37,964 nt of DNA from a virus (lineage: Duplodnaviria > Caudoviricetes): the IMG/VR virus record IMGVR_UViG_3300043747_000016, positions 1 through 37,964 of that record; one strand, 5' to 3'. Both the position numbers and the translations under genes were made by a program. Each line of letters starts with the position of its first letter. Positions within the stretch are counted from its first letter, which is position 1. This document shows positions 1,581 to 33,871 of the stretch, in pieces. A model generated the notes under the pieces. It ran no database searches. It was not told where the DNA came from and was given only the letters and a program-made list of their open reading frames with translations.

Positions 1581-1604
1581 TTCGTTTTATTCTCGTAAGA
1601 CGAC
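1581..1604 (-). repeat. Dispersed 9-6-9 dyad site B
   Basis: GTCGTCTTA CGAGAA TAAAACGAA, directly after the TAG at 1605-1607. Confidence 0.7.
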
Positions 1605-1760
1605 CTAAAGTTTTACATCAAACTCTTGTTTAAACCAATCTTTTATTTCCTCATACTCTTCCTCAGAAATGCCCCAATGTTCTATAAATTCCTTAAATGA
1701 ATACCGTCTGGCCTCTTTCATAAGTGCATACATAAATGTGTCTAATTTGCTTGGCTTCAT
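1605..1760 (-). CDS. Small hypothetical protein, 51 aa (MKPSKLDTFMYALMKEARR...)
   Basis: Manual ORF with RBS AAGGAGG; below the track cutoff. Confidence 0.75.
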   Translation of the reverse strand: MKPSKLDTFMYALMKEARRYSFKEFIEHWGISEEEYEEIKDWFKQEFDVKL

Positions 1761-1778
1761 TGTTTTTCCTCCTTTGGT

Positions 1779-1928
1779 TCACATATGTTTCGCTAATTTA
1801 AACCAATTTTTCATTGCTATAATGTCTTTTTCGCTCAAGCGTGTTTCTACTTGTGCGTTATTTGTATATATAGTTAGAACAATTTCTTTCTTTTCGTAAT
1901 CCATAATATATGATGATGGATTATCCAT
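1779..1928 (-). CDS. Small hypothetical protein, 49 aa (MDNPSSYIMDYEKKEIVL...)
   Basis: Manual ORF with RBS GAGGTGA. Confidence 0.7.
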   Translation of the reverse strand: MDNPSSYIMDYEKKEIVLTIYTNNAQVETRLSEKDIIAMKNWFKLAKHM

Positions 1929-1945
1929 TCTTTTCACCTCACTAC

Positions 1946-1969
1946 GACACAATTTGGTTCAAATAATCA
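1946..1969 (-). repeat. Dispersed 9-6-9 dyad site A
   Basis: TGATTATTT GAACCA AATTGTGTC, directly after the stop of 1970..2404. Confidence 0.7.
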
Positions 1970-2404
1970 TCAGAAAGGAACCGAACTATCATCAATTACA
2001 ATTTCCATTGGTGGTTCTGCTTGTGAAGGTTTAAACCCCTTAACTTGTACATATTTTTTACCGTTATATTCACGTTCCCCAACAACCAAGCGTAAATTTT
2101 TATGAAGGAAAAACTCAGCCCATTCTTTGAAAGAATTAAATTCTTTACCGTTTGGAAATCCAGCTGCTTTCGATGCTGATTGGAATCTCCACATGGTATT
2201 CTCTGAAACAATGAAGTTATCATATAGAATTTTACGAGCTTGGAAATCTTGATCTACATCACTACGAATCTCATAATCTACAGAAACAACATTTTTATCT
2301 GTGGATGATTTTTTAAGCTCAAAATTGATAACCGTTACTTCATATTCTCCTGGTGTGATTGATGTAAATCCTTCTTTAGCTTGGCTATGATCGATTTTAA
2401 ACAT
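1970..2404 (-). CDS. DUF669-like phage ssDNA-binding protein
   Basis: PGEYEV motif, acidic C-terminal DDSSVPF tail, adjacent to ERF. Confidence 0.75.
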   Translation of the reverse strand: MFKIDHSQAKEGFTSITPGEYEVTVINFELKKSSTDKNVVSVDYEIRSDVDQDFQARKILYDNFIVSENTMWRFQSASKAAGFPNGKEFNSFKEWAEFFLHKNLRLVVGEREYNGKKYVQVKGFKPSQAEPPMEIVIDDSSVPF

Positions 2405-2416
2405 TAATATTTCCCC

Positions 2417-2836
2417 CTAAAATTCAATATTTTCTTTTGGTTTTTGGCTTGCAAGGTTGCCATCGTCATCTTCATCAGATGTAATGCCAAACATTGCAGA
2501 TAAGCTATATCGCTTCAGGTAAGTAATGACACTCCCTGTTGCTTGTGCATCTTGTTTAACAGGTGTTGCAAAAATTGGTTCGCTTTCGATATATTCTCCA
2601 GAACTGTGAAGGATAACAGTTACCACACCAACTTTATTTTCTTGATTCATCGGATATTGAATGAAACTTAATCCATGCTTATTAGCAACTTTTGTAATGG
2701 CTTCTACAACGCTCTCAAGAGGAACGTAGGAACTTTTGAAGAATGGGTTAACCTTATCCTTTGAAGGTTGTTTAACATCCTTCTGAAAGGCTGACAATGC
2801 TTTTGCTAATTCAGCAATACTTTCTGATTTATGCAT
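2417..2836 (-). CDS. ERF-family single-strand annealing protein
   Basis: NPFFKSSY...L and GSVITYLKRYSL...DEDDDG motifs. Confidence 0.9.
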   Translation of the reverse strand: MHKSESIAELAKALSAFQKDVKQPSKDKVNPFFKSSYVPLESVVEAITKVANKHGLSFIQYPMNQENKVGVVTVILHSSGEYIESEPIFATPVKQDAQATGSVITYLKRYSLSAMFGITSDEDDDGNLASQKPKENIEF

Positions 2837-2885
2837 AATTCATTCCTTTCCGTGATATACTAAAAATGTAATATTTCCATATGGG

Positions 2886-3077
2886 CTAATCTTGCTCCCC
2901 AGCTATTAGCCCTTCGATGACTTTTTCAATTTCCTCGATTGTAGCTTCATGTACCTTGCTTTTTTCTTTCAGCATCACATTAGATTCTTCATTTGATTTA
3001 ATCTTGTCTAAATTTTCCTGAAGTTGACGTTGATGATATCTAAGACTTTTCTTTAATTCATCTAAGACAAGTTTCAT
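2886..3077 (-). CDS. Hypothetical coiled-coil protein
   Basis: Track ORF, translationally coupled to the upstream gene. Confidence 0.7.
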   Translation of the reverse strand: MKLVLDELKKSLRYHQRQLQENLDKIKSNEESNVMLKEKSKVHEATIEEIEKVIEGLIAGEQD

Positions 3078-3295
3078 TAATCCTCACCTTCCACACTGAT
3101 TGAAATATCGATAATGTACTGATGAATACATTCGTGATTTTGATGAAGATAAATTTCACCGTTTAGCGGAAGATAAAAGTAATCCTCATTCGCGTAAATT
3201 TCCTCTTGGCATCCTTCACATTCACCGACTACTTTCGGTTTATCATCTTTCCAAAGTCGATCGATGACCATCTTATTTTCAATATCCAAACTCAC
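3077..3295 (-). CDS. Hypothetical protein with CxxC...HxxC metal-binding motif
   Basis: CEGC...HQNHEC; RBS GGGAGG. Confidence 0.7.
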   Translation of the reverse strand: MSLDIENKMVIDRLWKDDKPKVVGECEGCQEEIYANEDYFYLPLNGEIYLHQNHECIHQYIIDISISVEGED

Positions 3296-3302
3296 AACCT
3301 CC

Positions 3303-3437
3303 CTAATCTTGTGGATGATCCATCATATAGCCCACAGTAATAATTTCCCTTAAACTTGTTGAATACTCGATAGTCTCATACTTTGTATGAAGATCCGCAT
3401 CAGATACGAGATTCAAAAGTACTTTGTTGATTAGCAT
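3303..3437 (-). CDS. Small hypothetical protein, 44 aa
   Basis: Manual ORF MLINKVLLNLVSD..., coupled to the upstream stop, RBS AGGAG. Confidence 0.55.
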   Translation of the reverse strand: MLINKVLLNLVSDADLHTKYETIEYSTSLREIITVGYMMDHPQD

Positions 3438-3632
3438 TTATTTATCTCCTTTCTTTGATTTCATACTGTTTTCTTGATGTTTCTTGTATTTATCTTTTGG
3501 TATTTCTGAAAAAGAAATGATTCTTTCTCTTTTAGTCGGAACAATTGGATGCTTTTTGATGTATTCCTGGCGTTCCTCTTCGGTCATATACCAAACAGTA
3601 ACTTTACCGTGCATGGTTTCACCTCTATTCAT
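3438..3632 (-). CDS. Hypothetical phage protein
   Basis: Track ORF; probable start MHGKV after GAGGTG. Confidence 0.65.
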   Translation of the reverse strand: MNRGETMHGKVTVWYMTEEERQEYIKKHPIVPTKRERIISFSEIPKDKYKKHQENSMKSKKGDK

Positions 3633-3810
3633 AAACAGTTAAGGAAACTTCAACATGATCAGATTCCACATTGTCCTGTATCAATTTCGCAATTTCTTGT
3701 TTTGCCATATGGATAAACTGTCTTTTGTGGAATGAAGATAAACCATTCAATTCCTCTATTTCTTCAGGATCCAATGTGTATTGAATTTTAATAGTGGTTT
3801 CGAATTTCAT
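3625..3810 (-). CDS. Hypothetical protein
   Basis: Track ORF in the early operon. Confidence 0.65.
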   Translation of the reverse strand: MKFETTIKIQYTLDPEEIEELNGLSSFHKRQFIHMAKQEIAKLIQDNVESDHVEVSLTVYE

Positions 3811-3904
3811 ATTTAATCGACGATTCCAAAAAGCTTAAATGCAACCATCCCAAGAATTATAAGGATGATAAAAACGACCCCAAACATAAGTTCACCCACT
3901 ATAT

Positions 3905-4021
3905 TCACCCCTTTACTTTCAATATTTCGTTCCACATCTTATGGCACTGAATAATGATGGAAATATCTTTCATTTCATAACCAGTTCGAAAGCTATTTAC
4001 TAACCAAGTTGGCATGCTCAC
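3905..4021 (-). CDS. CmpA-like small protein, 38 aa
   Basis: MSMPTWLVNSFRTGYEMKDISIIIQCHKMW...; RBS AAGGAGGTGA. The MPxWL-x10-KD-x3-I-x6-W pattern matches B. subtilis CmpA as recalled. Confidence 0.6.
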   Translation of the reverse strand: MSMPTWLVNSFRTGYEMKDISIIIQCHKMWNEILKVKG

Positions 4022-4092
4022 TATGATCACCTCCTTAAATGTATGAATACTTTTCACCGCAAATTTTGCATGTTTGGTAAAAAGAGAAGGCT

Positions 4093-4443
4093 TTATTCAG
4101 CCTTTGCATTCGCTTTATAAAACTCTCGAAGTTCAAAGAAATCTTCCATGCTGTATTCAATAATTCCAATCCCATATTCGGCAGTTTTTTTTAGGCAATC
4201 ATCAACCCGTTTTGTATTTGAGCAATAAGTAAATTCCCTGTAAAGCAGGCCATTTATTGTTTTGAATAGACAATACATATTAGATATAAAATCGTTATCC
4301 TTAATTACATAGGCAACTAATTCAGCTTTGTTTTCGCGATTCTCATTCACACCATCAATAAAATTGTTAATGAAATCCAATACTTTACCTTCACCAATTG
4401 CTTTTAACGGTTCAAGATCAGAAGCCAGATATTTTTTGTTCAT
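4093..4443 (-). CDS. Hypothetical protein
   Basis: Track ORF 4093..4464; better start at ATG 4443 after GAAGGTGAG. Confidence 0.7.
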   Translation of the reverse strand: MNKKYLASDLEPLKAIGEGKVLDFINNFIDGVNENRENKAELVAYVIKDNDFISNMYCLFKTINGLLYREFTYCSNTKRVDDCLKKTAEYGIGIIEYSMEDFFELREFYKANAKAE

Positions 4444-4543
4444 TTTTCTCACCTTCTTTTTCATTTTTTAAAATGATTGGTAATGAAGTTTTTCTAAGCA
4501 GCTGAAGCAGCAATTTTGCTGTTTCTTTTGATGGTTGGTTCAT
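4418..4543 (-). CDS. Small protein after cro, 41 aa (MNQPSKETAKLLLQLLRKTSLP...)
   Basis: Manual ORF with RBS AGGAGGG. Confidence 0.6.
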   Translation of the reverse strand: MNQPSKETAKLLLQLLRKTSLPIILKNEKEGEKNEQKISGF

Positions 4544-4554
4544 ATTACCCTCCT

Positions 4555-4917
4555 ATTGGTCAAAACAACCAATTTTAATCTAAAAAAATATCCTTTATAC
4601 TTACATTAAGTTTTTCAGCAATGTTTTTAGCTAATACTAAGCTTGGATTTCTTTTACCACTTTCAATGTGATTTAACCACCAATTTGTTACACCAACTGA
4701 TTTAGCTAGTTCTTTTTGCGAAATACCTTTCTTTTTGCGTATTACTGCGATGTTATTTTTCAATTATCAATTCCTCCTTTCTTTTTGTTATTGGTTCATT
4801 TAACCAATTTATATCTTGATTATAATTGGTTCTTTTAACCAAGTCAATAATAAAATTGGTTATTTAAGCAAAAAAGTTATTTTAATGAATTAATAACTTT
4901 TGGTCTTGTAAACCAAT
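4555..4917. promoter_or_regulatory. Switch operators TTGGT-N7-ACCAA (4555-4573, 4790-4808, 4825-4843, 4899-4917, degenerate copy at 4855) and sigma-A promoter for cro
   Basis: Repeated palindrome. Minus-strand TTGACT (4847-4842), 17 nt, TATAAT (4824-4819). Plus-strand TATAAT at 4921-4926. Confidence 0.8.
4575..4763 (-). CDS. Cro-like XRE HTH regulator
   Basis: SQKELAKSVGV...IESGKRNPS motif; divergent from the repressor. Confidence 0.9.
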   Translation of the reverse strand: MKNNIAVIRKKKGISQKELAKSVGVTNWWLNHIESGKRNPSLVLAKNIAEKLNVSIKDIFLD

Positions 4918-4934
4918 TAGTATAATGTTAGTAG

Positions 4935-5297
4935 GTGATTATTATGGGAATACATGTTGGTTTAAAAATAAAGGAACTTAGAAAAGAACATAAGGACACT
5001 TTGAAATCTTTAGCTGAAAAAGTTAATTATGATTGGAGTAATTTATCTAAAGTCGAAAGAGGTGTTTATGGTGCATCGGTTGACTTATTAAAAAAAATAG
5101 CGGAAGTATATAATGTTAGTCCAAACTATTTTTTCGATGGTTTTACTAAATCGGAAGGCAACCTTCTTGTGGAAGAAAGTATCGTACCTTCCGATCTAAA
5201 GAAAAAATATAATTTTGTTGTAGATGGGGTTGAAGCTACTGAGGAAGAGCTTCTTGAGGCAATAAAGCTTATTCGTTTGCTTCGCCCATCTGATTAA
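4935..5297 (+). CDS. CI-like XRE HTH repressor (no peptidase domain)
   Basis: N-terminal HTH (TLKSLAEKV...LSKVERG); divergent from cro. Confidence 0.85.
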   Translation: MIIMGIHVGLKIKELRKEHKDTLKSLAEKVNYDWSNLSKVERGVYGASVDLLKKIAEVYNVSPNYFFDGFTKSEGNLLVEESIVPSDLKKKYNFVVDGVEATEEELLEAIKLIRLLRPSD

Positions 5298-5451
5298 GTA
5301 TTTTATCCCTGTGAGCACATGCGGTAAGGATCATCGGACAACTAATGCATCTCACTTCATTTTTGAATTTGATGGAGGACAGTGTTTTTTTTGCCAATTC
5401 CGCAAAATGTTTTAAATCAATTATTTCTCTTTCGCTTTCGCTATCGTGCAT
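5269..5451 (-). CDS. Hypothetical protein convergent with the repressor
   Basis: Track ORF; RBS AGGAG before ATG 5451. Confidence 0.45.
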   Translation of the reverse strand: MHDSESEREIIDLKHFAELAKKTLSSIKFKNEVRCISCPMILTACAHRDKILNQMGEANE

Positions 5452-5487
5452 TGTAAACATCTCCTATTAACAAAGGTGGTAAGTTAT

Positions 5488-5718
5488 TTGTATGATGTCG
5501 GCAGATGTCTTTTGTCCGACAAACTTTTACAGGCACGAATGTCACAACAAGAACTAGCTGAAAGAATCGGTGTAACCAGACAACAAATCAATCATTATTC
5601 AAACAATCGAAGAATTATGACGCTGCATGTTGCTAAAAATATTGCTTTCATTCTTCAATGCGATATTGATGATTTGTACGAATGGATTCCTGTAAAATCT
5701 CGGAGTAAAAGACGATAA
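5488..5718 (+). CDS. XRE HTH protein
   Basis: MSQQELAERIGVTRQQI motif; TTG start after AAAGGTGG. Confidence 0.8.
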   Translation: MYDVGRCLLSDKLLQARMSQQELAERIGVTRQQINHYSNNRRIMTLHVAKNIAFILQCDIDDLYEWIPVKSRSKRR

Positions 5719-5838
5719 TGGGTAGATTTTCTATCTACTCGCCGACATTTGTATGTCAATTGACTTACCTATTTTACATGATATTTTACAATAATTGTGT
5801 GATGATTTATATATTTTTAAGTGTAAAAATTGGATTCA

Positions 5839-5872
5839 TGGTACAATTATACCATTACAAGAACAAATGTTC
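5839..5872 (+). promoter_or_regulatory. Extended -10 promoter and LexA (Cheo) box upstream of the integrase
   Basis: TGGTACAAT at 5839-5847; GAACAAATGTTC at 5861-5872. Confidence 0.7.
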
Positions 5873-5921
5873 TATTATTTTATTAAGAATAGGTTGAAAT
5901 TTAGTGAAGAGGAGTAACAAT

Positions 5922-7373
5922 ATGAAAGTCGCGGCATACATCCGTGTTAGTACACACGAACAAGTTGAGGAAGGATATTCAATACCTGCGCAACGGAATA
6001 AGTTGGAAGCTTATGCACTTTCTCAAGAATGGGAAATTGTCCAATTTTATGTAGATGAAGGGATCAGCGCCAAAGATATGGATAGGCCAGAGCTACAACG
6101 TATGTTGAAAGGAGTTAGAGAAGGATTATTTGACTGTGTGTTGGTTTATAAATTAGACCGTCTTACAAGGTCCGTAATGGACCTTTATACTCTTCTGGAT
6201 ACATTTGAAAAACATAACATCAAATTTAAAAGCGCAACCGAAATTTACGATACAACAACAGCAATCGGCCGCCTTTTTATAACCCTTGTTTCGGCACTTG
6301 CACAATGGGAAAGAGAACAGCTTGGAGAGCGTGTCAGTTTCGGGATGCAGCAAAAAGCAAAAGAAGGAAAATGGACAGTAAGCACTCCACCATTTGGTTA
6401 TATTTCAAATGATTCTCAATTAACAATAAATGCCTCAGATGCTGCTATTGTAAAAGAAATATATACTCTTTATCTCTCTGGTATGGGCATGTGGAAAATT
6501 GCTAAAAATCTTAACGATAGAGGTCTTAAAACAAAAAGGAATAAACCTTGGGGCCAAACTTCGGTTCACTATATCTTAACTAATCCAATTTATAAAGGAA
6601 CAACAAGATATAATTTTCGAGTTAACAATGAACAGTATTTTGAAATGGATGACGTTGCGCCAGCTATCATATCAGAAGAAGAATTTAATTTAACGCAGCA
6701 AATGATGGAAAATAGAAAAAGTGTTCATCCTCGTCAGGCTACATCTCGGTTTATGTTTAGCAAGGTTTTAAAATGTTCCCGATGTGGATCCACACTAATC
6801 GGTAAATCCTCCACAACGAAGAGAGGAGATAAAAAGTATTACTCTTATAATTATATTTGCCAAAATAAACTTCGCGGCACCTGTGACCTGCCAACCATCA
6901 ATGAAAATTTTTTCGAACAAAAATTTCTTGAGTTAATGGATAATTGGAATTTTAATGAATATGCCAATGAGATGGTTAATGAAGAGGTTGCTGTTTCGGT
7001 TGAAGATATAGAAAGTAGAATCAAGCAGCTGCAGGATGAATTAAAAAATATTGAAAGCCGCCGATCAAAATGGCAGTATGCCTGGGTGCAAGAAATGATT
7101 ACGGATTTGGATTTTAAAAAACGCATGGATGAAGAAAACGAAAAAGAAAAGATGATCCTCAAGGAATTAAATGAATTAACTCCAAAAGAATCATCCCCCG
7201 CAGATTCAAGTATAATCGATTTATGGACAGATTTAAAGTTGAATTGGTCATATATGGACCATCAGGCAAAGAAACAGTTTATTTTGATTGCTGTTAATTA
7301 TATCATTGTGGACAAAGTAAATATGAATCGTAATCCTGATTCAATTGAAATTAAAGAGGTTAAATTTAATTAG
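5922..7373 (+). CDS. Large serine recombinase (integrase)
   Basis: Catalytic YIRVST, DRLTRS, recombinase domain, Zn ribbon CSRC...C...C, coiled coil; RBS GAGGAG before ATG 5922. Confidence 0.95.
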   Translation: MKVAAYIRVSTHEQVEEGYSIPAQRNKLEAYALSQEWEIVQFYVDEGISAKDMDRPELQRMLKGVREGLFDCVLVYKLDRLTRSVMDLYTLLDTFEKHNIKFKSATEIYDTTTAIGRLFITLVSALAQWEREQLGERVSFGMQQKAKEGKWTVSTPPFGYISNDSQLTINASDAAIVKEIYTLYLSGMGMWKIAKNLNDRGLKTKRNKPWGQTSVHYILTNPIYKGTTRYNFRVNNEQYFEMDDVAPAIISEEEFNLTQQMMENRKSVHPRQATSRFMFSKVLKCSRCGSTLIGKSSTTKRGDKKYYSYNYICQNKLRGTCDLPTINENFFEQKFLELMDNWNFNEYANEMVNEEVAVSVEDIESRIKQLQDELKNIESRRSKWQYAWVQEMITDLDFKKRMDEENEKEKMILKELNELTPKESSPADSSIIDLWTDLKLNWSYMDHQAKKQFILIAVNYIIVDKVNMNRNPDSIEIKEVKFN

Positions 7374-7384
7374 CCTCTTTTTTC

Positions 7385-7430
7385 TGTGCCTATTATTCAT
7401 ACAGGGCATCTTGTCTGTACAATAGGCACA
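7385..7430. other. Putative attP
   Basis: 46-bp imperfect dyad (17/22 arm matches, outer TGTGCCTATT perfect) around central CA, just after the integrase stop. Confidence 0.7.
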
Positions 7431-7433
7431 TAC

Positions 7434-7646
7434 TTAACCGTCACATCGTTTATAAAGATCATCTAGCTTACAATTCAACAACTCAGCTAATAAATAGGCC
7501 TTATCCATCGGTATATAATTTTTCTGCAATTCATAATTCCTCAGCTGCCTTGTGCTGATCTCCAGCTTATCGGCAATAAAATCCTTCCGTAATCCACTTT
7601 CTTTTATTAGTTGCTCCAACCTGCAATGTAATTTCATATTCATCAC
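7434..7646 (-). CDS. XRE HTH regulator divergent from the FtsK operon
   Basis: GLRKDFIADKLEIS...LAELLNCKLDDLY motif. Confidence 0.85.
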   Translation of the reverse strand: MMNMKLHCRLEQLIKESGLRKDFIADKLEISTRQLRNYELQKNYIPMDKAYLLAELLNCKLDDLYKRCDG

Positions 7647-7657
7647 CTATGCTAAAT

Positions 7658-7682
7658 ATTCCATTTTTTAAATGAATTTCCT
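7658..7682 (-). promoter_or_regulatory. Sigma-H-type promoter
   Basis: AGGA-N17-GAAT. Confidence 0.55.
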
Positions 7683-7780
7683 CCTGAAATATTTTTCAGA
7701 TGGACATACATTAAAACTTCAGATAGGCCATACATTGTAACCATAACAACAAACATGTTTCAGGAAAGAAGGTTACTAAC

Positions 7781-7999
7781 ATGGTTATAAAACTGAATCA
7801 AAAGCCAATCGTGGTCCGTGAGGACAATGAGGATCAAAAGGATTTTAGCCCTGTTTATTTCGCTGTTAGCTGCATCGGGTACGCGTTGATTTTGTGGATT
7901 ATGGATTATTCTTGTTTTATGTTTTTTGGTCTTCATCCTTTTCCTTTTCTTAACTGGTTATTCAAAATCATCGGGGGTGTTTTTCATGGGATTGGTTGA
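7781..7999 (+). CDS. Small membrane protein
   Basis: Hydrophobic segments; RBS GAAGG. Confidence 0.7.
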   Translation: MVIKLNQKPIVVREDNEDQKDFSPVYFAVSCIGYALILWIMDYSCFMFFGLHPFPFLNWLFKIIGGVFHGIG

Positions 8000-8267
8000 G
8001 GGGATGAATAAAATTTTCGGTGTAGAATGCGATGAATGTAGTGTGCCATTTCCTAAGTCGATGCTTGTTTCATTCGAATGTGTTGGTTTTTCTAAGTATA
8101 ACGGCCGCTATTGTGCGCATTGTTATCAAAAGATAGCCAAAAGTTTTGGATTTTGTGATGATTGCGGCGATGAATACCCAAAAGAACATTTGTATAAATC
8201 AGTGATGGGACATAAAACGATACTATGTTTACGTTGCTTAAACAAGGAGGATGACGATGCGATTTAA
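7986..8267 (+). CDS. Zinc-finger protein (four CxxC)
   Basis: CDEC, CAHC, CDDC, CLRC; ATG 7986 after GGGGGTG. Confidence 0.7.
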   Translation: MGLVEGMNKIFGVECDECSVPFPKSMLVSFECVGFSKYNGRYCAHCYQKIAKSFGFCDDCGDEYPKEHLYKSVMGHKTILCLRCLNKEDDDAI

Positions 8268-9480
8268 AAATGAAATCACTAAAAAAGTTTATGAGGTTTT
8301 GCTGCAAACAGGATTCGAACATAGCGTGATTTTAGACATCGTTCAAAATGAAAATGTCCTATCCACAAAGATAATTTTGCCCCCTAGTATCGATTTAGAC
8401 GACCTTGAAACGATCCTCCCTAATCTCAAACAGGAATTAAACGCAATGGATGTGAAGTTTGGAAAAATCAAAGGTAAAAAGGTTGAAATTTTGTTTGGTA
8501 TGCGGGATTTATCTAACGTTTCTTTTAACATCAGAAAAGACACTTTACAAATTGAATTGCCGTCATCTTATGGCGTTTCTATTTTGGATTTTGCCGATGG
8601 TGCTAGTTGTCACCTACTTGATGGCGGCACAACCAGGATGGGAAAAACAAATTTGATGCTATATATTTTAACTGTTTTATATGTACAGCTTAACGGCGAT
8701 GTCGATTATTTTATAACCTCAACCAAATTAAAAGATTATTACCCGTTGTTTGGGCTGCCTAATGTAAGAACGGCTAAAGGAGTGGAAGAATTTGAGGATA
8801 TGCTTGATGACCTTATTACTCTTTATAAGTCTAGGGATAGCCTTTTATATTCGGAGGAATTTATAAAGGCAACCGATGCTAAGGATGTTAAAAAGTTTTA
8901 TCCTGATAAATACTATTTATTTCGTCCTGTTTTTGTGGTCATCGATGAATATGCCAGGTATGCGGATAATCGGGAAGTTCAATTAAAAGTTATGGAGTTA
9001 GTCGAATCGGCGGGTTATGTGAATGTCCATGTATTAATCTCAACTCAAAGACCCGATGCAAGGACCGTTTTACCGCCAAGGATCAAGGGTAATTTATTGG
9101 CCCGAATCTGTTTTACCACAACCGACAAAAACAACTCAATCGTTGTTTTGGACCAGGAAGGGGCGGAAAAGTTAGGGGAGATTCCAGGGCGGGCCATCTT
9201 CTTAAATAGCAATGTTAATATTGTCCAGGTTCCACGAATGACAGCCGCCAACAGTTCCAGGCTATTAAAACCATTCAGGAGGAATAAACAACATGTTAAC
9301 CAAGGTGAAACGGGATCAAATGATACTGCATTACCTAAATCATTTCAAAGTCTTGACGAGAAATCAGTTGGCATTATTGATATTCCAGAGCAACAGCAAC
9401 CCCGTAAATGTGACAAATCGGGTAATGAAAAGGCTAATAACGGGTGGTTCCTGCTTGCAGATCCCCCGGACAAAAGATAA
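8257..9480 (+). CDS. FtsK/SpoIIIE-family ATPase
   Basis: Walker A GGTTRMGKT, Walker B VVIDE, STQRP, GRA motifs. Confidence 0.9.
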   Translation: MRFKNEITKKVYEVLLQTGFEHSVILDIVQNENVLSTKIILPPSIDLDDLETILPNLKQELNAMDVKFGKIKGKKVEILFGMRDLSNVSFNIRKDTLQIELPSSYGVSILDFADGASCHLLDGGTTRMGKTNLMLYILTVLYVQLNGDVDYFITSTKLKDYYPLFGLPNVRTAKGVEEFEDMLDDLITLYKSRDSLLYSEEFIKATDAKDVKKFYPDKYYLFRPVFVVIDEYARYADNREVQLKVMELVESAGYVNVHVLISTQRPDARTVLPPRIKGNLLARICFTTTDKNNSIVVLDQEGAEKLGEIPGRAIFLNSNVNIVQVPRMTAANSSRLLKPFRRNKQHVNQGETGSNDTALPKSFQSLDEKSVGIIDIPEQQQPRKCDKSGNEKANNGWFLLADPPDKR

Positions 9481-9847
9481 ATGTTATTTATATGGACATA
9501 TCGGTATCAATCCAAATAGTAATAAGATAAATCATTATTTAAAAATTGTGGACTTTTATCTGCAAGCCGGGAAACCTAATGTTTTTGTGGTTGAACCTGA
9601 ACTGGGGTGCTATGAGCCAGATGTTTATTTTAAAAATAACAAAGGGGAGCCGATCTGTGTGGAAATACAATTAACCGTGATAAGCCATAAAAAAATGCAA
9701 AGAAAAATAGATGATTTTGTTAAAGAATCAGGAAAAACACATGATTCCAAAAAACTAATGATTTGTAGTGATTATCATTATAAAGTTAAAATGCCCAGTG
9801 GTTTTCATCTGATTCGACAAGGATTGCCAAAAGAAATTATTTTTTAA
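9293..9847 (+). CDS. Replication-relaxation (Replic_Relax) family protein
   Basis: N-terminal wHTH (RD..IL..L..F..LT..QL) and PD-(D/E)xK-like EPD...VEIQ; own RBS AGGAGG; 188-nt overlap with the FtsK gene. Confidence 0.8.
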   Translation: MLTKVKRDQMILHYLNHFKVLTRNQLALLIFQSNSNPVNVTNRVMKRLITGGSCLQIPRTKDKCYLYGHIGINPNSNKINHYLKIVDFYLQAGKPNVFVVEPELGCYEPDVYFKNNKGEPICVEIQLTVISHKKMQRKIDDFVKESGKTHDSKKLMICSDYHYKVKMPSGFHLIRQGLPKEIIF

Positions 9848-9855
9848 CATTTTGA

Positions 9856-9880
9856 AGGAATTTAATGGATATTATCGAAT
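9856..9880 (+). promoter_or_regulatory. Sigma-H-type promoter
   Basis: AGGA-N17-GAAT. Confidence 0.55.
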
Positions 9881-9916
9881 AGGAAATAAATACTAAAAAT
9901 TTATGGGGGAATAGTA

Positions 9917-10252
9917 ATGAAAAAATTGTGGATTGGATTATTAAGTTCTTTAATCGTAGTTGTATTATTAGCTGGATGTGGAACAAATAAACCTGTAAAA
10001 CCTGACTACACAACAGAACAATTTGAAGCTGCATTGAATAAAGGTGATAACGTGGAAGGAAAAACCGTATCGGTCAAAGTGGAAAAACTTGTACCAAATA
10101 GCGCACTTGGTTATGATATTTGGGCTGGAAAACATCTGAATTTTGTTTCCTCTGATAATCCTAATGTTAAAGCTGGAGATACAATCATTGTAAAGGTTAC
10201 GAAAGTAACAAGCAGTTTAGGTTCATATATGATTAGTTACGAAAAACAATAG
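9917..10252 (+). CDS. Lipoprotein
   Basis: Signal peptide with LAGC lipobox. Confidence 0.85.
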   Translation: MKKLWIGLLSSLIVVVLLAGCGTNKPVKPDYTTEQFEAALNKGDNVEGKTVSVKVEKLVPNSALGYDIWAGKHLNFVSSDNPNVKAGDTIIVKVTKVTSSLGSYMISYEKQ

Positions 10253-10261
10253 TATAAAAAC

Positions 10262-10292
10262 AAGCCCCTACTCAAACGAGTAAGGGCTTTTC
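10262..10292. terminator. Bidirectional intrinsic terminator
   Basis: AAGCCC...GGGCTT stem between convergent genes. Confidence 0.7.
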
Positions 10293-10293
10293 T

Positions 10294-11310
10294 TTATTTT
10301 ACGCGGATTTTTTGACCTGCAAATATTTTATTAGGGTCACTAATGCTATTCCATGCTTGAAGTTGACTTACGGTCGTTCCATTTGCTGATGCAATCTTTG
10401 AAAGTGTATCTCCTGACTTGATTACATAATAAACAGGTTGAGCTTTTAATGCTGGATTATCTAACCAGTAGAATACCCCACTTGCTTCATCAACCCAATT
10501 AGCCCCGCCTAGGTTATCCCAACAATGGCCATTTGAATCTATTACCTTATCAAACACATGAAAAGTTTCGTCTTTTTGTGTATCTCTCACATATTCGGCG
10601 CGATGATCTGGCGCTTTTCTAATGTCTGTCGTTCCATCACATCTCAATGTTTGTAGGATGGTTTGTTTTGTGCAAAAAACAGGATCGATTGTTGGTTGTG
10701 GCTGAGGTGCTTGTTGAACCTGACCCCATGCTCCAATGTCATCTCTTTCCAGGTTGTCCAAATCAACATTTGCCCCGGTGTTATTCCAATTGGTTTTATC
10801 GATTTGATATTGATAAATATTTAAAAAGCTACAATGCTGGCCAGAGCTCCATGCGGTTGTCTGAAACCAATAATCCGCCGCGTTATTTTGATGCAAATAA
10901 TTAAGAACGGTAAATGATCCATATGCACCTAATTTGTAGTTTCCTAGATTAGCGCGGATCGCATTGAAGTAGGATAAAATATTGGCCAAATCTCCCGCCT
11001 GGGCATCATAATCCACAGTAAAATAAATTGCGGTTCCTTCTGGCTGACCCACCGAATGTGCAAGATTAATAGCATCCACCGCATCGGATTTCCCTTTGGC
11101 TGCCGAAAAATAACCTGCTGATGTTGGATTCGTTTCATAAATGCTAAATATCTGCATTCCTGCCGCCTTTATGTTAGCAGTTTCTCCAAGTGTTAAACCT
11201 TTCCATGTCGAACGGCTGAGATAACGCCCAACATATTTAATTCCGTTTTTAGCTAAATTAGAAATCTGTGTTGGGTTTAATCCTGTACAGTCCACAGAAT
11301 TTATAGTCAT
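10294..11310 (-). CDS. Endolysin: DUF1906/GH25-like muramidase, SH3-like region, LysM
   Basis: YVGRYL, AIYFTVDYD, QTTAWS motifs; C-terminal YVIKSGDTLSKIA...GQKIRV LysM. Confidence 0.9.
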   Translation of the reverse strand: MTINSVDCTGLNPTQISNLAKNGIKYVGRYLSRSTWKGLTLGETANIKAAGMQIFSIYETNPTSAGYFSAAKGKSDAVDAINLAHSVGQPEGTAIYFTVDYDAQAGDLANILSYFNAIRANLGNYKLGAYGSFTVLNYLHQNNAADYWFQTTAWSSGQHCSFLNIYQYQIDKTNWNNTGANVDLDNLERDDIGAWGQVQQAPQPQPTIDPVFCTKQTILQTLRCDGTTDIRKAPDHRAEYVRDTQKDETFHVFDKVIDSNGHCWDNLGGANWVDEASGVFYWLDNPALKAQPVYYVIKSGDTLSKIASANGTTVSQLQAWNSISDPNKIFAGQKIRVK

Positions 11311-11654: not shown

Positions 11655-11657
11655 GAA

Positions 11658-11945: not shown

Positions 11946-12033
11946 TTGACCGCCCCCTAAAAATAAATCCATCTATATAAAAAAAGAGCCCATAAAATGA
12001 GCTCTTCAACTTAAAATATTTAATTCCATTTAC

Positions 12034-12057
12034 GACACATTTTCATCCAAAGACGAA
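12034..12057 (-). repeat. Dispersed 9-6-9 dyad site C
   Basis: TTCGTCTTT GGATGA AAATGTGTC, 5 nt after the acetyltransferase stop. Confidence 0.75.
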
Positions 12058-12062: not shown

Positions 12063-12581
12063 TTAAATAGCACAGATATTTTCTTTTGTTTTTAATATCT
12101 GTGCTGGGATTCCAACTGCAACTGAATTTTCTGGTATATTCTTTGTAACAACAGAATTGGCTCCAATTTTAGAATTTTTTCCGATAACAATTTTACCTAA
12201 AATTTTAGCTCCTGCACCCACTAGAACATTTTCTTCAAGAGTAGGAAAACCGTCGTTTTTTCCATGTGATAATCCTAATGTGACAGAATGGTATAGCTTA
12301 CAGCCTTTTTTTATTACAGCGTTTTTACCTATCACCAATCCAACTCCATGAACAATCACTACTCCACCTTCAATTTTCGCTCTCCAATCGATATCAATAC
12401 TATATAATATCTGGATCAATCGAGTTAAAATCATAGGAATTAAAGGTATTTTATGCAACCATAACCAGTGTGAAATACGATAAGATATTAATGCATGGAC
12501 TCCTCTATTGGTCAGTAAAGAAAGAATAAACTTTCCTTCGACTTTTTTTATGTCCATGATAATCTCCTTTGAAATATTCAT
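12063..12581 (-). CDS. CysE/EpsC-like hexapeptide-repeat O-acetyltransferase
   Basis: HGVGLVIG, VTLG, GAGAKILG, IGANSVV, VGIPA left-handed beta-helix motifs. Confidence 0.9.
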   Translation of the reverse strand: MNISKEIIMDIKKVEGKFILSLLTNRGVHALISYRISHWLWLHKIPLIPMILTRLIQILYSIDIDWRAKIEGGVVIVHGVGLVIGKNAVIKKGCKLYHSVTLGLSHGKNDGFPTLEENVLVGAGAKILGKIVIGKNSKIGANSVVTKNIPENSVAVGIPAQILKTKENICAI

Positions 12582-12669
12582 GAATTATTCCCCCCAAAAA
12601 ATATTACTTTTTCCTACAAATTATTATACTTATAAATTGTAATAAAAGTAATATTTTTGGAATAAAAAG

Positions 12670-14175
12670 TTAAATTATAGGACTTACTCTTGTTGTACTT
12701 AATGTTGTCCCGTTTACAGCCATTGAGTAATACCATCCTGCTGGCACATATAATTCAATTAATTCTGTATTACTGCTAGATGTTGAACCGTCAACATATT
12801 TTGATAATGCTTGAGGGTTTGAACTTGAAGACGTTCCTAAATAAGCAACTGCATACCCTGCTGTTCCACTGACATTAGCGTATATTTGTTGTCTAACAAT
12901 AATAGGAAACGGATTTGTATTTTGATAAATGGTTCCACTCACTAAAGGATTAGCAGGAGGTGAAACACTTGGCGAACCTGTTATATACGGTGCGCCTGTA
13001 CCCGACAAAGCTGCAAAATTATTAATTCCAATTCTATAACCAGTAGCTAGACTAATAATAGGAACTACGCAGTCCTCAAATGTACAACCTGTAACTAGTA
13101 TTTGTCCTTGCAAACCATTCGCTCCTAAACCTTCAAAAGAACAACCTGTTATAGCTATACCATCCGCTGTTGCTATTGCATTAATAAATTGAAGTGTGTG
13201 AACCGCTGGAACTTTGGCAGAACAACCTGAAAAAACAGTACCGCGATTATCACCACTAGAAGGATTAACTGTTATTAATGGATAATTTGTATCATTAGGA
13301 ACAAATACACATCCTACAAACAATGTGGAATCGGCATTACCCAAAAACATTTTAGAAACTGATGGTGTAGCAGGATTTTGTCCAGCTTCAAATTTACAAT
13401 TCGTAAAGCTGTTTAAAAATACTTGTGAATTTGTTCCACCATCTACATTCAATAATTTTGTACAGGATTCAATTCGTACACCATGAAAATGGTTAGCGTT
13501 GCATCCATTATCAGTGTTAGAACCTAAATTCAAGCCTAATCCACAATACATCAATTGAACATTTTCAAAATAACCATCTTGAGCAAAGATAAGGTCTAAT
13601 CCTGTTCCACCAATTTGAGCTATCATAATATCTTTAATAAAAAATCGACCATCAGCATTATTTAAATGAATTCCTCCGACAGAAGGTGAACTTGCGTTAT
13701 ATGAAGTAGTCCCGTCACTTGAACTTATACTTAAACCCTCAATACCAAAATCAGTAATAGCTGGCGCTCCACCTACACCATTAACTGAAAATACATATCC
13801 TGATGTTCCTGTCGGGTTAATTCTTGTTGCCATTGCTCCCGCACCTTGAATGTACACATGTGAACGCAAATATATAGTGCCTGATACCTGATAAACACCT
13901 TGAGGTATATATACAATTCCTCCGTATTTTCCGTTTGATGGCGCACCATAGGCAGAATTTGAACTATTTGGTGCAATGCTATTTATAGCGTTTTGGATTG
14001 CTGTTGTAGAGTCATTTACTCCCGTTGGGTCTGCTCCAAAATCTTGTACAACATCAACCCATGCATTTTTCCAGTGTGTCGCATTTTGGGCCAAAGACGT
14101 CTCAGCAGCCGTCAGTCTCGGCTCTAAATAAGTGGGATCATTTTTAAGGTCTGGAAACTTATTTCCCCATCCCAT
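12670..14175 (-). CDS. Tail spike / receptor-binding protein with pectate-lyase-3-like beta-helix (depolymerase)
   Basis: DFGADPTGVNDSTTAIQNAI and GIVYIPQGVY motifs; last gene of the tail module. Confidence 0.85.
   Translation of the reverse strand: MGWGNKFPDLKNDPTYLEPRLTAAETSLAQNATHWKNAWVDVVQDFGADPTGVNDSTTAIQNAINSIAPNSSNSAYGAPSNGKYGGIVYIPQGVYQVSGTIYLRSHVYIQGAGAMATRINPTGTSGYVFSVNGVGGAPAITDFGIEGLSISSSDGTTSYNASSPSVGGIHLNNADGRFFIKDIMIAQIGGTGLDLIFAQDGYFENVQLMYCGLGLNLGSNTDNGCNANHFHGVRIESCTKLLNVDGGTNSQVFLNSFTNCKFEAGQNPATPSVSKMFLGNADSTLFVGCVFVPNDTNYPLITVNPSSGDNRGTVFSGCSAKVPAVHTLQFINAIATADGIAITGCSFEGLGANGLQGQILVTGCTFEDCVVPIISLATGYRIGINNFAALSGTGAPYITGSPSVSPPANPLVSGTIYQNTNPFPIIVRQQIYANVSGTAGYAVAYLGTSSSSNPQALSKYVDGSTSSSNTELIELYVPAGWYYSMAVNGTTLSTTRVSPII
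14078..14101 (-). repeat. Dispersed 9-6-9 dyad site H (in frame within the tail-spike gene)
   Basis: GACGTCTTT GGCCCA AAATGCGAC, codons 25-33 (ETSLAQNAT). Confidence 0.7.
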
Positions 14176-28176: not shown

Positions 28177-28194
28177 TCATTCACCCCCTTTCTG

Positions 28195-30329: not shown

Positions 30330-30389
30330 ATTCTCACCTCCGAATAGTTAAATTTTAGGAGTTAAAAGGTTCATTTCTAAAAAAAATGG

Positions 30390-30460: not shown

Positions 30461-30585
30461 CAAAATAATTTACATGAAATAGTCTGAATTGTTTCAAATT
30501 ATCACACAATTACGACAACATTCGACAAATCGACACGATTCGACATAAATACGCATGATATATAGTAACCAAGTAATACTTCGCC

Positions 30586-30987: not shown

Positions 30988-31081
30988 TCATCATCATTCC
31001 TATATTCGTACATATGAAATCCAAAGTATAAAAAGAAAAAGGTGAGTATTCCACCAACGATATAACCGGCAAAGAAGTTAA

Positions 31082-31228: not shown

Positions 31229-31489
31229 ATGCAATCACCCCGATAAAATGAATAAGCCACCTTTCCTGCGGCAGATGGCAAGCCGTCCCGATCCACACCT
31301 TAGCATTTGGGATCAATGCAGAAAGGAGGTAGAAAAACGATTGATATGTCATGATACATATTAAATCGTCCAGGTGCAGAATATCGAATATAAAAAAAGT
31401 ACCCTTCAAAATGAAAGGTACTACAACTAGAAATGCGTTTAACAAACTAGAATATGCACGTAAGGTCTTTTCCGAGACCTTTGATAATA

Positions 31490-31550
31490 CTATTATAATA
31501 CGTTCAATTTAAAAAAGTACTGCTGGATTACTGCGTTATTCTGCCAAAAA
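31490..31550 (-). promoter_or_regulatory. Putative late promoter with three GCAG(A/T)A direct repeats
   Basis: GCAGAA/GCAGTA/GCAGTA at about 10-11 bp spacing, then TATAAT; downstream of the ArpU-like gene. Confidence 0.55.
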
Positions 31551-31591
31551 TTAGCCACCTGGTTTAATGCCCATACGATCACCTCCTTTAC

Positions 31592-31615
31592 GACACATTT
31601 TGGTCGTAAGACGTC
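31592..31615 (-). repeat. Dispersed 9-6-9 dyad site D
   Basis: GACGTCTTA CGACCA AAATGTGTC, abutting the stop at 31616. Confidence 0.75.
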
Positions 31616-31915
31616 TTAAATAAGTTCCTCTTTCATATGCATTTTTAAGAACTCTGCCATACCTAAACCGATAATCCCATCCAAACAAGTCCAACCGCTT
31701 GCAACAGTTCCATTTTTATATTTCCTTACTACTACCAATTCTTCGATTTCATTACCGTAAAGCTCATTTAACAAAATTCTAATTAGTTCTTTAACAGTTA
31801 TTTCACCGTTCTTTTTTGCTTTAATGTCCTTTAATTCCTCAACATTTCCAACTAATTCAGAAACAGATACCTTAACTTTTATTTCACTTGGTAATTTAGA
31901 CAAATTACAATTCAC
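31616..31915 (-). CDS. Hypothetical protein (cassette cargo)
   Basis: Track ORF; start may be TTG 31903. Confidence 0.7.
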   Translation of the reverse strand: MNCNLSKLPSEIKVKVSVSELVGNVEELKDIKAKKNGEITVKELIRILLNELYGNEIEELVVVRKYKNGTVASGWTCLDGIIGLGMAEFLKMHMKEELI

Positions 31916-31922
31916 CTCTTGT

Positions 31923-31946
31923 TATGTCTTTTCTTTCAAATATTCA
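31923..31946 (-). repeat. Dispersed 9-6-9 dyad site G
   Basis: TGAATATTT GAAAGA AAAGACATA; the first 3 nt are the ArpU-like stop. Confidence 0.65.
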
Positions 31947-32369
31947 TTCAGCCACAATTCCAAATGCTTCAGCAACAACCGCAATCATTTCTCTTTTCAA
32001 ACGATAATAAGTACGATCAGGAATTTTTAAATCTTTATAAACATCCACATCGAAGCGATCTAACAGATAACGATGTTCCCAAATTTGCTGTTGAATCGGT
32101 CTTAACGATTCATACACTAAATCTAATTTTCTTACCGTCCGTGTATATTCATCTAATTCGATTTCAGTTAAGGCAATCTTTTCGGGTTCGCTATAAAATT
32201 GATTACCTCTTTGGCTTTCGGACCCAGAATAACCTGGCGTTAATTTCGGTTCTAAGTCCATCTTTTTACTTTCGATGATAGCCTCATACATTTTATAACG
32301 GCTCATAAGCTTTTCTGCCTGCCGTTTAACTTCTTTGGTTAATTTTATGTCCAACAGAGTTAATTGCAT
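31944..32369 (-). CDS. ArpU/RinA-family late transcriptional activator
   Basis: RYL...D..VY..L.I..RTYYRLK motif; end of the early region. Confidence 0.85.
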   Translation of the reverse strand: MQLTLLDIKLTKEVKRQAEKLMSRYKMYEAIIESKKMDLEPKLTPGYSGSESQRGNQFYSEPEKIALTEIELDEYTRTVRKLDLVYESLRPIQQQIWEHRYLLDRFDVDVYKDLKIPDRTYYRLKREMIAVVAEAFGIVAE

Positions 32370-32377
32370 TCAATCAC

Positions 32378-32800
32378 CTACTCAACACGATTAATACTAG
32401 CTTGTTGGTCAAATCCATTCGGGTAACGTTTCATCAATTTCACAATGTTCATCGTTGCGATTTCCTCTAATGAAAATCCAGCCGAATTCGATAAATTTGT
32501 TAGGTACCAAAGGCAATCGCCTAACTCTTTTGCCAATTCAAGAGGTTCCATTTCATGACCGTGGAAAACAACTTTCTTTAATAAATCCACAACTTCTCCA
32601 GCTTCGCCATTTAATCCCATGGAATAATTACAATAGGCTTCATTTTTCGTTAAATCTTTGTTGCGTGTGCGTAATGCTAATTCTTGATATTCTGCAAACT
32701 TCACGATGTTACTGCCTCCAAAATCTGTTTCGTTAATCGAATTATTCTTATTCTCATATATTAGTTTCGAGACTTCATATACTTTATTATCAACGTTCAT
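32378..32800 (-). CDS. MazG-like NTP pyrophosphohydrolase
   Basis: GLNGEAGEV...KELGDCLWY...NIVKL..RYP. Confidence 0.9.
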   Translation of the reverse strand: MNVDNKVYEVSKLIYENKNNSINETDFGGSNIVKFAEYQELALRTRNKDLTKNEAYCNYSMGLNGEAGEVVDLLKKVVFHGHEMEPLELAKELGDCLWYLTNLSNSAGFSLEEIATMNIVKLMKRYPNGFDQQASINRVE

Positions 32801-33072
32801 TATTTTTTACTTCCTTTCACTCTGGATCCGTATAATTTATATTTTTGTAATTGATTTTTGACTTCCCACAATTCAACGCCAAACAAATCAGCAATTTGCA
32901 TATCACTAAATCCCATGCCCCAATATTTCACTAATTTTTGAATAAAATGATCTCCCCATCTTTTTAGCTGAAGTTCCCGTGCTGCAGGATATTTATATTC
33001 AATAGGGCATTCTTCAAAAAGACAGATTGTTAACAATTGTTTTTTTGTTGCTTCTTCCCATCTTAAAACCAT
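32800..33072 (-). CDS. Hypothetical protein with C-terminal HTH-like segment
   Basis: GFSDMQIADLFGV. Confidence 0.65.
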   Translation of the reverse strand: MVLRWEEATKKQLLTICLFEECPIEYKYPAARELQLKRWGDHFIQKLVKYWGMGFSDMQIADLFGVELWEVKNQLQKYKLYGSRVKGSKK

Positions 33073-33248
33073 TTATTTTCACCGATCTCTATATCGATTT
33101 CTTTAAAACTTGATAAAACCAATTCATATTTCAATTCATCATAAGTAAGTTCATCGATGCTTGTACCTGTTTGAGAATGAGTAATGCCTTTTTCTTTTAA
33201 TTGCTCCAAAACAAAATTACGTTTCATATTTTGTTGCAAATTAAACAT
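33063..33248 (-). CDS. FbpA-like small protein
   Basis: L..KGI...G.SIDELTYDELK pattern. Confidence 0.55.
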   Translation of the reverse strand: MFNLQQNMKRNFVLEQLKEKGITHSQTGTSIDELTYDELKYELVLSSFKEIDIEIGENKWF

Positions 33249-33272
33249 CGAACATCACACCTTTTGAGAGAA

Positions 33273-33425
33273 TTAGTACGGTAGGTCTCGCATATTTAAC
33301 CGATCTTTCTTTAACTTCTCAATTAATTCTTTCGCTTGCTTTGGATTGATCTGCTGCATTAATTCAGCTAATTGTTTTTTATATTGAATCCGTTCTTTGT
33401 CTTCGATAAATTTTGATTTAGCCAT
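33273..33425 (-). CDS. Small hypothetical protein, 50 aa
   Basis: Manual ORF with RBS GGAGG. Confidence 0.65.
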   Translation of the reverse strand: MAKSKFIEDKERIQYKKQLAELMQQINPKQAKELIEKLKKDRLNMRDLPY

Positions 33426-33487
33426 GTTGTTCCTCCAAGTCAATTAATTTATTAAGATAAAAACTAACTTTCTTTGAATCTTCCATG

Positions 33488-33625
33488 TCACTCCGCCAGC
33501 TCCTTTTGTTTATTAGCCTCTTCCCAGAATAGTGAATCCACTTTCGAAAGAAGATCATGAAGCTCCGGCAATGACAACCCACATTCTTTTATGACTTTTT
33601 CTAATATTTCAACTTTTACGGACAT
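33488..33625 (-). CDS. Small hypothetical protein, 45 aa
   Basis: Manual ORF with RBS AAGGAGG. Confidence 0.65.
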   Translation of the reverse strand: MSVKVEILEKVIKECGLSLPELHDLLSKVDSLFWEEANKQKELAE

Positions 33626-33637
33626 GAATTTTCCTCC

Positions 33638-33661
33638 TTCATAATTTGGTCGAAAGACGTA
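33638..33661 (-). repeat. Dispersed 9-6-9 dyad site E
   Basis: TACGTCTTT CGACCA AATTATGAA, abutting the stop at 33662. Confidence 0.7.
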
Positions 33662-33832
33662 TTAGTCTTCTAGTTCTCTCATACGATTTCTGACCCAATC
33701 TAATTGACCTCCGACAACCATTCCCTTTAATTGCATTCTGTAGGCTTCGAATAGTTCATCTTTCAATTCTTCAATTTCCTTTTCTAATTGATTAATCCTA
33801 TCTTCGTTTGTTTCTTCTGGCATATAAATCAT
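33662..33832 (-). CDS. Small acidic coiled-coil protein, 56 aa (cassette cargo)
   Basis: Manual ORF MIYMPEETNEDRINQLEKEIEELK...; RBS AGGAG. Confidence 0.7.
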   Translation of the reverse strand: MIYMPEETNEDRINQLEKEIEELKDELFEAYRMQLKGMVVGGQLDWVRNRMRELED

Positions 33833-33847
33833 TGTCTTCACTCCTAC

Positions 33848-33871
33848 GACATCTTTTCTTTCAATTGTTCA
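33848..33871 (-). repeat. Dispersed 9-6-9 dyad site F
   Basis: TGAACAATT GAAAGA AAAGATGTC; the first 3 nt are the upstream stop. Confidence 0.65.

Follow-up and report, generated by a model that had tools for sequence, protein, structure and literature searches.

Layout of the phage genome and its eight sites

The virus record IMGVR_UViG_3300043747_000016 of IMG/VR, whose complete stretch of 37,964 nucleotides is called the window in the following, carries eight short sites that bracket small groups of genes, and it is the role of these sites in the exchange of gene modules between phages that we analyse here. It represents the complete, circularly permuted genome (38 kb) of a temperate siphovirus of the Bacillales type (direct terminal repeats; 100% complete). 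Its gene set includes an HK97 capsid, a large serine integrase, Erf, a primase and ArpU. A preliminary description, made from the letters alone, had listed eight 24-mers on the minus strand, each with two 9-bp arms around a 6-bp core (9-6-9), and all eight are found verbatim at the coordinates below. Seven of the eight adjoin, contain or sit 5 nucleotides from a stop codon, as had been noted. The sites had also been called dyads; the 9-6-9 layout is correct, but the symmetry is weak, with only 3-7 of 9 arm positions pairing. They do form four pairs, but the idea that every pair surrounds accessory genes has to be revised for the pair H-C, which holds the body of the tail spike and an O-acetyltransferase.

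All sites and modules lie on the minus strand. The first pair stands between the genes for SSB and primase. Entry site A (1946..1969, core GAACCA) lies immediately 3' of the SSB stop codon and exit site B (1581..1604, core CGAGAA) immediately 3' of a stop codon; the module between them (1605..1945) consists of two small open reading frames (ORFs) of 57 and 51 amino acids (aa) without family match, and is missing from the relatives L005, phi105 and A9Y. The tail pair begins within a gene: entry site H (14078..14101, core GGCCCA) is in frame at about codons 26-33 of the tail-spike gene (12670..14175, 501 aa), the pectate-lyase-like domain of which starts at aa 43, just past the site. H is thus an in-frame fusion point within the tail spike, a feature that had been overlooked. 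The module further contains the gene for an EpsC/CysE-like O-acetyltransferase of 172 aa (12063..12581; NF041874, 165 bits, cut-off 150), and exit site C (12034..12057, core GGATGA) lies upstream of the holin region. The beta-helix spike and the O-acetyltransferase (12063-14175) are possibly a receptor-binding plus receptor-modifying pair; in another phage (L022), a 427-aa hydrophobic ORF likewise follows the spike inside the sites.

Entry site G (31923..31946, core GAAAGA) overlaps the stop codon of the ArpU-like late activator and is paired with exit site D (31592..31615, core CGACCA). The G-D module (31616..31922) has one 99-aa ORF, which belongs to a small family and has a weak PADLOC match to AbiEi (E 7e-4). 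This cassette interrupts the ancestral 3' end of the ArpU gene, and the displaced last codons persist past the exit site in the window (31440-31560) and at L002:880-1200, L003:1180-1400 and L009:36440-36500. The fourth pair, entry site F (33848..33871, core GAAAGA) and exit site E (33638..33661, core CGACCA), flanks a module (33662..33847) with one 59-aa ORF that has no family match. In all four pairs the entry core differs from the exit core; the cores of G and F are identical, as are those of D and E, in direct orientation.

Breakpoints in soil metagenomes

Five soil metagenome runs (X1-X5) contain the window phage or relatives of it. Breakpoints in relatives had been named as a check of the proposed exchange, and natural switches of sequence were indeed found inside sites G, D, H and C in contigs of sister strains and other phages. 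At the tail pair, the dominant strain of X2 (depth ~130) has 0 differences to the window on the listed pieces of 1000-12050 and then departs from it within C, and a second loose end of this run departs from the window sequence within H. The window's own H-C module is present in X2 at a depth of 26-31. Past both breaks, the X2 letters give alternative arms around unaltered cores, and at H the alternative frame stays open over the 8 codons visible in the loose-end letters. The breakpoints flank the core of H on both sides, with loose ends before 14083 (X2) and behind 14094 (X3, X4); at C, they lie behind 12050 (X2, X4) and before 12041 (X3). The H-C module of the window is attached to foreign flanks at H in X3 and X4 and at C in X3. 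C or H is found within 6 bp of 11 of the 19 loose ends among those listed, 10 further ones being unlisted.

Further to the right, positions 31604-31941, which run from mid-core of D to the inner arm of G, recur with 0 differences on a 6.5-kb contig from another phage (X4). There the stretch sits between a homolog of the ORF at 33273-33443 and a MazG-like stretch and thus in a different slot; joints for the relocated stretch are also present in X3. X5 carries 31604-31993, with new sequence past the middle of the D core, and two further upstream sequences (X2, X4) stop at the left arm of D, where breaks lie at 31609 and 31612. D is the position of 3 of the 24 loose ends among those listed for this region, with 45 more unlisted. 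Over 31908-37964, the X2 strain shows only 3 differences to the window, all of them within the cores of E (33648, 33649) and F (33859).

Together with the different cargo that relatives carry between matching sites (see below), the breakpoints at G, D, H and C bear out the proposal that the sites are junctions for the exchange of gene modules, and we regard the sites as almost certainly real exchange junctions. For site B, exchange may be expected from its site class alone. The 10 joints listed, from contigs that lose rare forms, include no empty site, no excision, no F x G or E x D deletion and no inversion at the tail pair.

Comparison with chance expectation

To what extent could the sites merely be similar by chance, as AT-rich gene junctions might be? 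The arms alone rise modestly above chance (leave-one-out ranks 3-57 of 75,882). With a matrix built from 59 sites of other phages, the eight sites rank 1, 2, 4, 5, 7, 8, 14 and 29 of 37,941, a partly circular result as those 59 sites had first been located with a window-derived matrix. The window sites rank high, but the number of arms-only matches does not exceed that in shuffled sequence (11 versus a mean of 6.2 and a maximum of 15, at score 8). Exact-pattern scans gave 2 matches in viral contigs, which we judged unrelated, and 12 in metagenome contigs. When post-stop matches were collected in the window without regard to the core, 6 of 6 had GA or CG cores, with a matrix partly trained on them.

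Arms-only counts within the shuffle range and a weak dyad symmetry are what chance similarity would give, but four sites contain breakpoints, two others show differences confined to the core, and unrelated phages have the same layout. The breakpoints and the block-end counts given below contradict this explanation, to which we assign a negligible probability. What exceeds chance is the combination of position, core and breakpoints.

Related sites and their cores in other phages

Whole-genome scans revealed further stop-codon sites around small genes, with GA cores at entry and CG cores at exit (G006, G008, G009, G011, G012, L002, L003 and BhaS-171). In core-blind post-stop scans, GA, CG or GG cores made up 4 of 4 matches at new genome loci and 11 of 12 in nine recombinase-bearing phages and half of a tenth (2 of them were training sites), versus 2 of 7 in controls and a background of 14%. 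The scan gave 0 matches in four isolates and three other phages. Site pairs are absent from the cultured relatives phi105, A9Y and NIIg9.7 and from the records G001, G004 and G005; the isolate BhaS-171 has one weak pair, which was overlooked by the post-stop filter. Among 80 holin-region loci, the locus L074 combines an H-like in-frame site with a 333-aa gene between spike and holin.

Different cargo occupies the same slot between matching sites in G008/G009 (146 versus 66 aa), L128/L129, L022/L024 and L002/L003, and the pair L119/L152 shares sequence (99% alike) only from the in-frame site onward. Ends of high-identity blocks coincide with sites in 10 of 27 cases, compared to 0.15 expected, in pairs that were chosen after inspection and of which four belong to one lineage. 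Scans of the cargo gave strong Pfam or PADLOC matches only for spikes, the acetyltransferase and, in G006, a DNA methyltransferase-like gene carried by a GA/CG pair (L156:3700-4662). No phage match was found for the H-C module, and the G-D cargo had only a weak partial match in viral contigs. A search for ArpU across 401 genomes gave 1 match.

Among the 67 sites collected by hand, the core starts with GA (14), CG (13), GGC (21) or GGA (19), and its sixth base is A in 58; as the sites were picked partly by their cores, these numbers are a description and not a test. In many Bacillales phages, small genes have GA at entry and CG at exit, and tail spikes have GGC at the in-frame entry and GGA at the exit. 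Differences between the cores of partners are confined to positions 3-6 (E and F in X2, D in the second phage, L119/L152, L022/L024). The variable bases move with the right flank in some cases and not in others, which may be due to an overlap left as heteroduplex. The core classes read along the direction of transcription at both ends, and the arms give no C/D polarity.

A candidate recombinase family

The 333-aa gene of L074 encodes a tyrosine recombinase (NF040815, 231 bits, cut-off 220; PF00589 and N-terminal SAM-like domains). Relatives are encoded at 45 viral loci, many of them between tail and lysis genes, and also in two Clostridia phage isolates. The family has core-binding and catalytic domains with an intact R-K-H-R-H-Y set and ~55 extra N-terminal residues. 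It shows no insertion when aligned to host Xer, branches separately from host Xer in a quick tree with two host Xer proteins as the only outgroup, and scores 103 bits with the integron-integrase profile TIGR02249 (cut-off 265). As it is present in only 16 of 401 Bacillales genomes, this recombinase is an accessory one.

In the closer clade, the top-scoring site of the 650 bp upstream of the recombinase carries a GGA core at 8 of 23 loci when a window-only matrix that ignores the core is used, and at 14 of 23 with a broader matrix that includes the L074, L022 and L024 arms; the corresponding controls are 2 of 77 and 4 of 77. In the second clade, the recombinase gene and the tail operon are convergent, and the sites located downstream at several loci are of the GGC in-frame or GAC exit type. 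On a chromosomal island of G046, a site lies directly 3' of the recombinase stop codon, with about eight sites around. The link to tyrosine recombinases, which had been drawn from the architecture of the sites, is thus strengthened by an association: in other phages, a recombinase family goes with the same kind of site and is often encoded next to tail pairs.

The complete window genome has no PF00589 match and hence no tyrosine recombinase, and none is encoded in the tail region of BhaS-171; action in trans must therefore be assumed. The window's own large serine integrase (5904-7373) was rejected as the enzyme, since serine-integrase att sites do not have a 9-6-9 layout.

The same double crossover could be carried out by another tyrosine recombinase, either host XerC/XerD (CodV/RipX), as in pdif systems, or a 180-aa mini-recombinase that many Bacillus phages encode next to ArpU and whose role is called unclear in the available text of PMC3335513. 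Sites do occur in phages without the tail recombinase (the window, BhaS-171 and L022/L024), G008 and G009 also encode the mini-recombinase, and the inner 9 bases of the E. coli XerC arm, as given in the available text of PMC2731167, are similar to both arms. However, 8 dif-type matches from 5 Bacillales genomes reach site-matrix scores of only -18 to +3.6 and have T at position 2, where the right arms described here have A. BtCS33 and 11143, two B. cereus group phages, encode the mini-recombinase yet show no post-stop site, and the sites cluster at the tail recombinase. We consider this alternative rather unlikely.

Three further arrangements of recombinases and sites were observed. The G046 island (G046:C30 ~59700-72100; L202, L217) is separated by ~5 kb from a dif-type sequence at 54774 and has the appearance of a cassette array in which cores starting with GAC, GAA and CAA bracket small genes and repeated segments, with CA as a possible address. 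In the Terrisporobacter phage TPELB_ph1 (L177:4195-5725), an in-frame and a post-stop site surround a 577-aa tail gene with the recombinase after it, and the cores are unlike the Bacillales addresses. A different tyrosine recombinase (23-25% identity) lies between tail and holin genes of B. cereus group phages (L226:17728-18696, L227:18959-19927) and is found at 11 of the 80 holin loci.

Module replacement as the proposed mechanism

The probable explanation, in our opinion, is that modules are replaced by double crossover, with the Xer-like family of the tail modules acting in trans. One enzyme would bind both 9-bp arms, and strands would be exchanged across the 6-bp core, the first 2-3 bases of which would have to match, so that entry pairs with entry and exit with exit. 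Such a rule would block the excision of a module and permit its replacement: two phage DNAs in one cell would fuse where one of the addresses matches and be resolved at the second. In the remainder of the core, mismatches would be tolerated and left as heteroduplex, which could account for the core-only differences. The recombinase would come from other phages. By an in-frame swap at H, the short constant N-terminus would gain a new spike, which would alter host recognition; as entry and exit addresses differ, loss of the module, with its essential spike, would be prevented. Observed are the positions of the junctions, the pattern of the cores, the association with the recombinase family and its absence from the window; the enzyme's catalysis, its cleavage positions, the homology rule, the supply in trans and the change in host range are inferred.

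In the preliminary description, the sites had been interpreted as junctions left by an integron-like insertion of small gene cassettes, with hybrid empty sites in relatives. Modules would then leave as circles by recombination of entry with exit and enter single empty sites. This would fit the modules, whose genes look promoter-less and have a site on either side, with a ribosome-binding site after the entry site, as well as the presence of the G-D module in a non-homologous slot and the island of G046, where directly repeated sites whose cores share the start GACT flank the recombinase, an arrangement resembling the result of an insertion. Yet in none of the 4 window pairs do entry and exit have the same core, the cores also differ in pairs of other phages, the hybrid site is absent from 8 cassette-free junctions, no empty-site joint is among the 10 listed, and the candidate enzyme is without an insertion relative to host Xer. 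Because the cores of entry and exit differ and no empty hybrid site was found, we favour replacement by double crossover over integron-like insertion, which appears very improbable.

Alternatively, the sites may be conserved boundary or protein-binding sequences, and the swaps may result from Erf-like relaxed homologous recombination or from selection for viable junctions. The window encodes an Erf-like protein (2417-2836), viable mosaics would be expected at stop codons and a domain boundary, where these junctions are located, and 17 of the 27 block ends lie away from sites. MrpR of SPbeta is a precedent for a recombinase fold that serves as a repressor. On the other hand, the exchange partners have little in common beyond the core and the inner arm bases; neither homology nor an operator would lead one to expect a constant 6-bp spacing, core starts specific to a class, or differences limited to the core; and site H lies inside a structural gene. 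This explanation also seems very improbable.

Several results weigh against module replacement by an enzyme in trans. Besides the 17 block ends away from sites, the inspected choice of pairs and the arms-only counts mentioned above, these concern the metagenomes, since X1 and X2 are a possible source of the window itself, the A-B module shows no variation and site A is invariant in runs X1-X4, and the same samples yielded no helper phage. The identical direct cores of G and F and of D and E should permit deletions; none was observed, and the persistence of these cores is left unexplained. The same applies to the origin of the slots. No hybrid site exists at 8 of 8 junctions compared in cassette-free relatives with ancestral layout (SSB-primase 3 of 3; ArpU end 5 of 5), where L004 has one unrelated match ~190 bp downstream of the ArpU-end junction, and in L002/L003 the outer arms differ despite matching flanks. 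Nine recombinase-bearing phage genomes contain at most 1 clear GA/CG pair each, versus three in the window. As for the enzyme, the upstream GGA test gave 0 of 20 in the second clade and, within 650 bp, 0 of 18 at the new Bacillales genome loci. In 3 of these 18, a GGC/GGA pair lies further upstream, about six loci in tail context have none, and the remaining ones look non-phage. The recombinase acting on these sites is a candidate by association.

Comparison with known systems

Integrons are defined by IntI, attI and attC, and IntI has a specific insertion in its catalytic domain. The window resembles them in having small genes bounded by sites of the tyrosine-recombinase type, but it lacks attC hairpins, an array gathered at a single attI and a crossover triplet common to both ends; empty sites were not found at the junctions and among the joints compared, in contigs that lose rare forms, and the candidate enzyme has no insertion relative to Xer. 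A search of the window for attC gave no Rfam match at gathering score, and the 24-bp sites are without long inverted repeats; an IntI gene beside attI and a cassette array was likewise not found, as the genome has no PF00589 match and its pairs are dispersed.

The mode of exchange is closest to that of pdif modules. According to the available text of PMC13141974, single modules on Rep_3/OrfX plasmids of Acinetobacter are replaced via cointegrates, and spacer mismatches are tolerated. As here, pdif sites have two arms and a 6-bp spacer, the spacer match selects the partners, crossovers fall inside the sites, and modules are replaced between left- and right-matching spacers, for which G008/G009, L128/L129 and the window versus X2 are the counterparts. 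However, pdif depends on host XerC and XerD at distinct 11-bp arms, whereas both arms of the sites described here fit one 9-bp motif unlike Bacillales dif; the modules of pdif plasmids lie between inversely oriented sites, and those of the phage genomes between sites in one direction. In addition, only the first 2-3 core bases are class-fixed here, one site is an in-frame fusion site, and the candidate enzyme is phage-borne.

The tail pair has the layout of the Rin shufflons of Bifidobacterium and Eggerthella prophages, as far as the available texts describe these (PMC6109161, PMC8778435): one site lies within the receptor-binding gene and another just past its end, the N-terminus is constant and the C-terminus variable, and a tyrosine recombinase without arm-binding domain is encoded next to the gene, as in same-site relatives of the window but not in the window itself. 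Rin inverts several stored tips at identical asymmetric 11-bp repeats, whereas one tip is stored here, the cores differ (GGCCCA and GGATGA), the tips come from other phages, and the site family brackets non-tail genes as well. Homology on only one side of the 6-bp central region is also sufficient for IMEX elements such as the VGJ and CTX phages, but there, according to the available text of PMC5357621, host XerCD integrates whole elements at chromosomal dif. The tyroviruses of Bacillus share with the phages described here an unexplained Xer-like gene (gp50) and a dyad site among the tail genes; in the available text of PMC9703825, however, this is a single 11-6-11 site with perfect arms after the gp50 stop codon, proposed to be attP. 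In summary, the sites work like pdif module replacement and the tail layout is that of a Rin shufflon, but defining features of both, and of integrons, are lacking.

We found no description of such a system in the literature searched, which largely excluded subscription journals and did not comprise supplements. New here are the population-level breakpoints, the presence of one site family with four addresses in tail and non-tail slots, the transfer of a module from one slot to another, and a phage that has the sites in use but lacks the enzyme.

The mosaic structure of phage genomes is generally attributed to illegitimate or relaxed homologous recombination followed by selection. Here, some of this mosaicism can be located at defined 24-bp sites that bear a readable code and have a candidate enzyme, so that direct tests are possible. 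If correct, module replacement would account for the second integrase that annotations of Bacillales and Clostridia phages show between the tail genes and the holin genes, would provide soil phages with a dedicated route to change their host range, and would represent a natural set of mutually non-reacting sites with a possible use for cassette exchange in the laboratory. We see the chances as evenly balanced that Firmicutes phages share a communal standard of cassette exchange, in which one phage-borne Xer-like family and a 2-3 base address on symmetric 9-6-9 sites would also serve phages that have sites only, and would distribute spike heads and small genes across unrelated phages and across slots. 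In that case, several compatible slots in one genome would be tolerated only because the enzyme's arrival in trans is brief.

Other features of the window

Four site-like matches (13774-13797, 20462-20485, 30493-30516 and 30532-30555) were set aside because they neither stand at a stop codon nor carry an address that reads in the orientation of the genes; at 13787, a loose end of X1 does not lead to an alternative arm. Two of them are site-like dyads 15 bp apart (30493-30555) between the HNH gene and terS, in the region of the packaging site, and the one at 30532 has a CGA core on the plus strand, against the direction of the genes. A further HNH endonuclease gene with a weak AP2 domain is inserted among the tail genes (16566-17213). 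On the plus strand, a module of FtsK/SpoIIIE and replication-relaxation genes (7434-10252) lies between endolysin and integrase, as it does in BhaS-171 and NIIg9.7.

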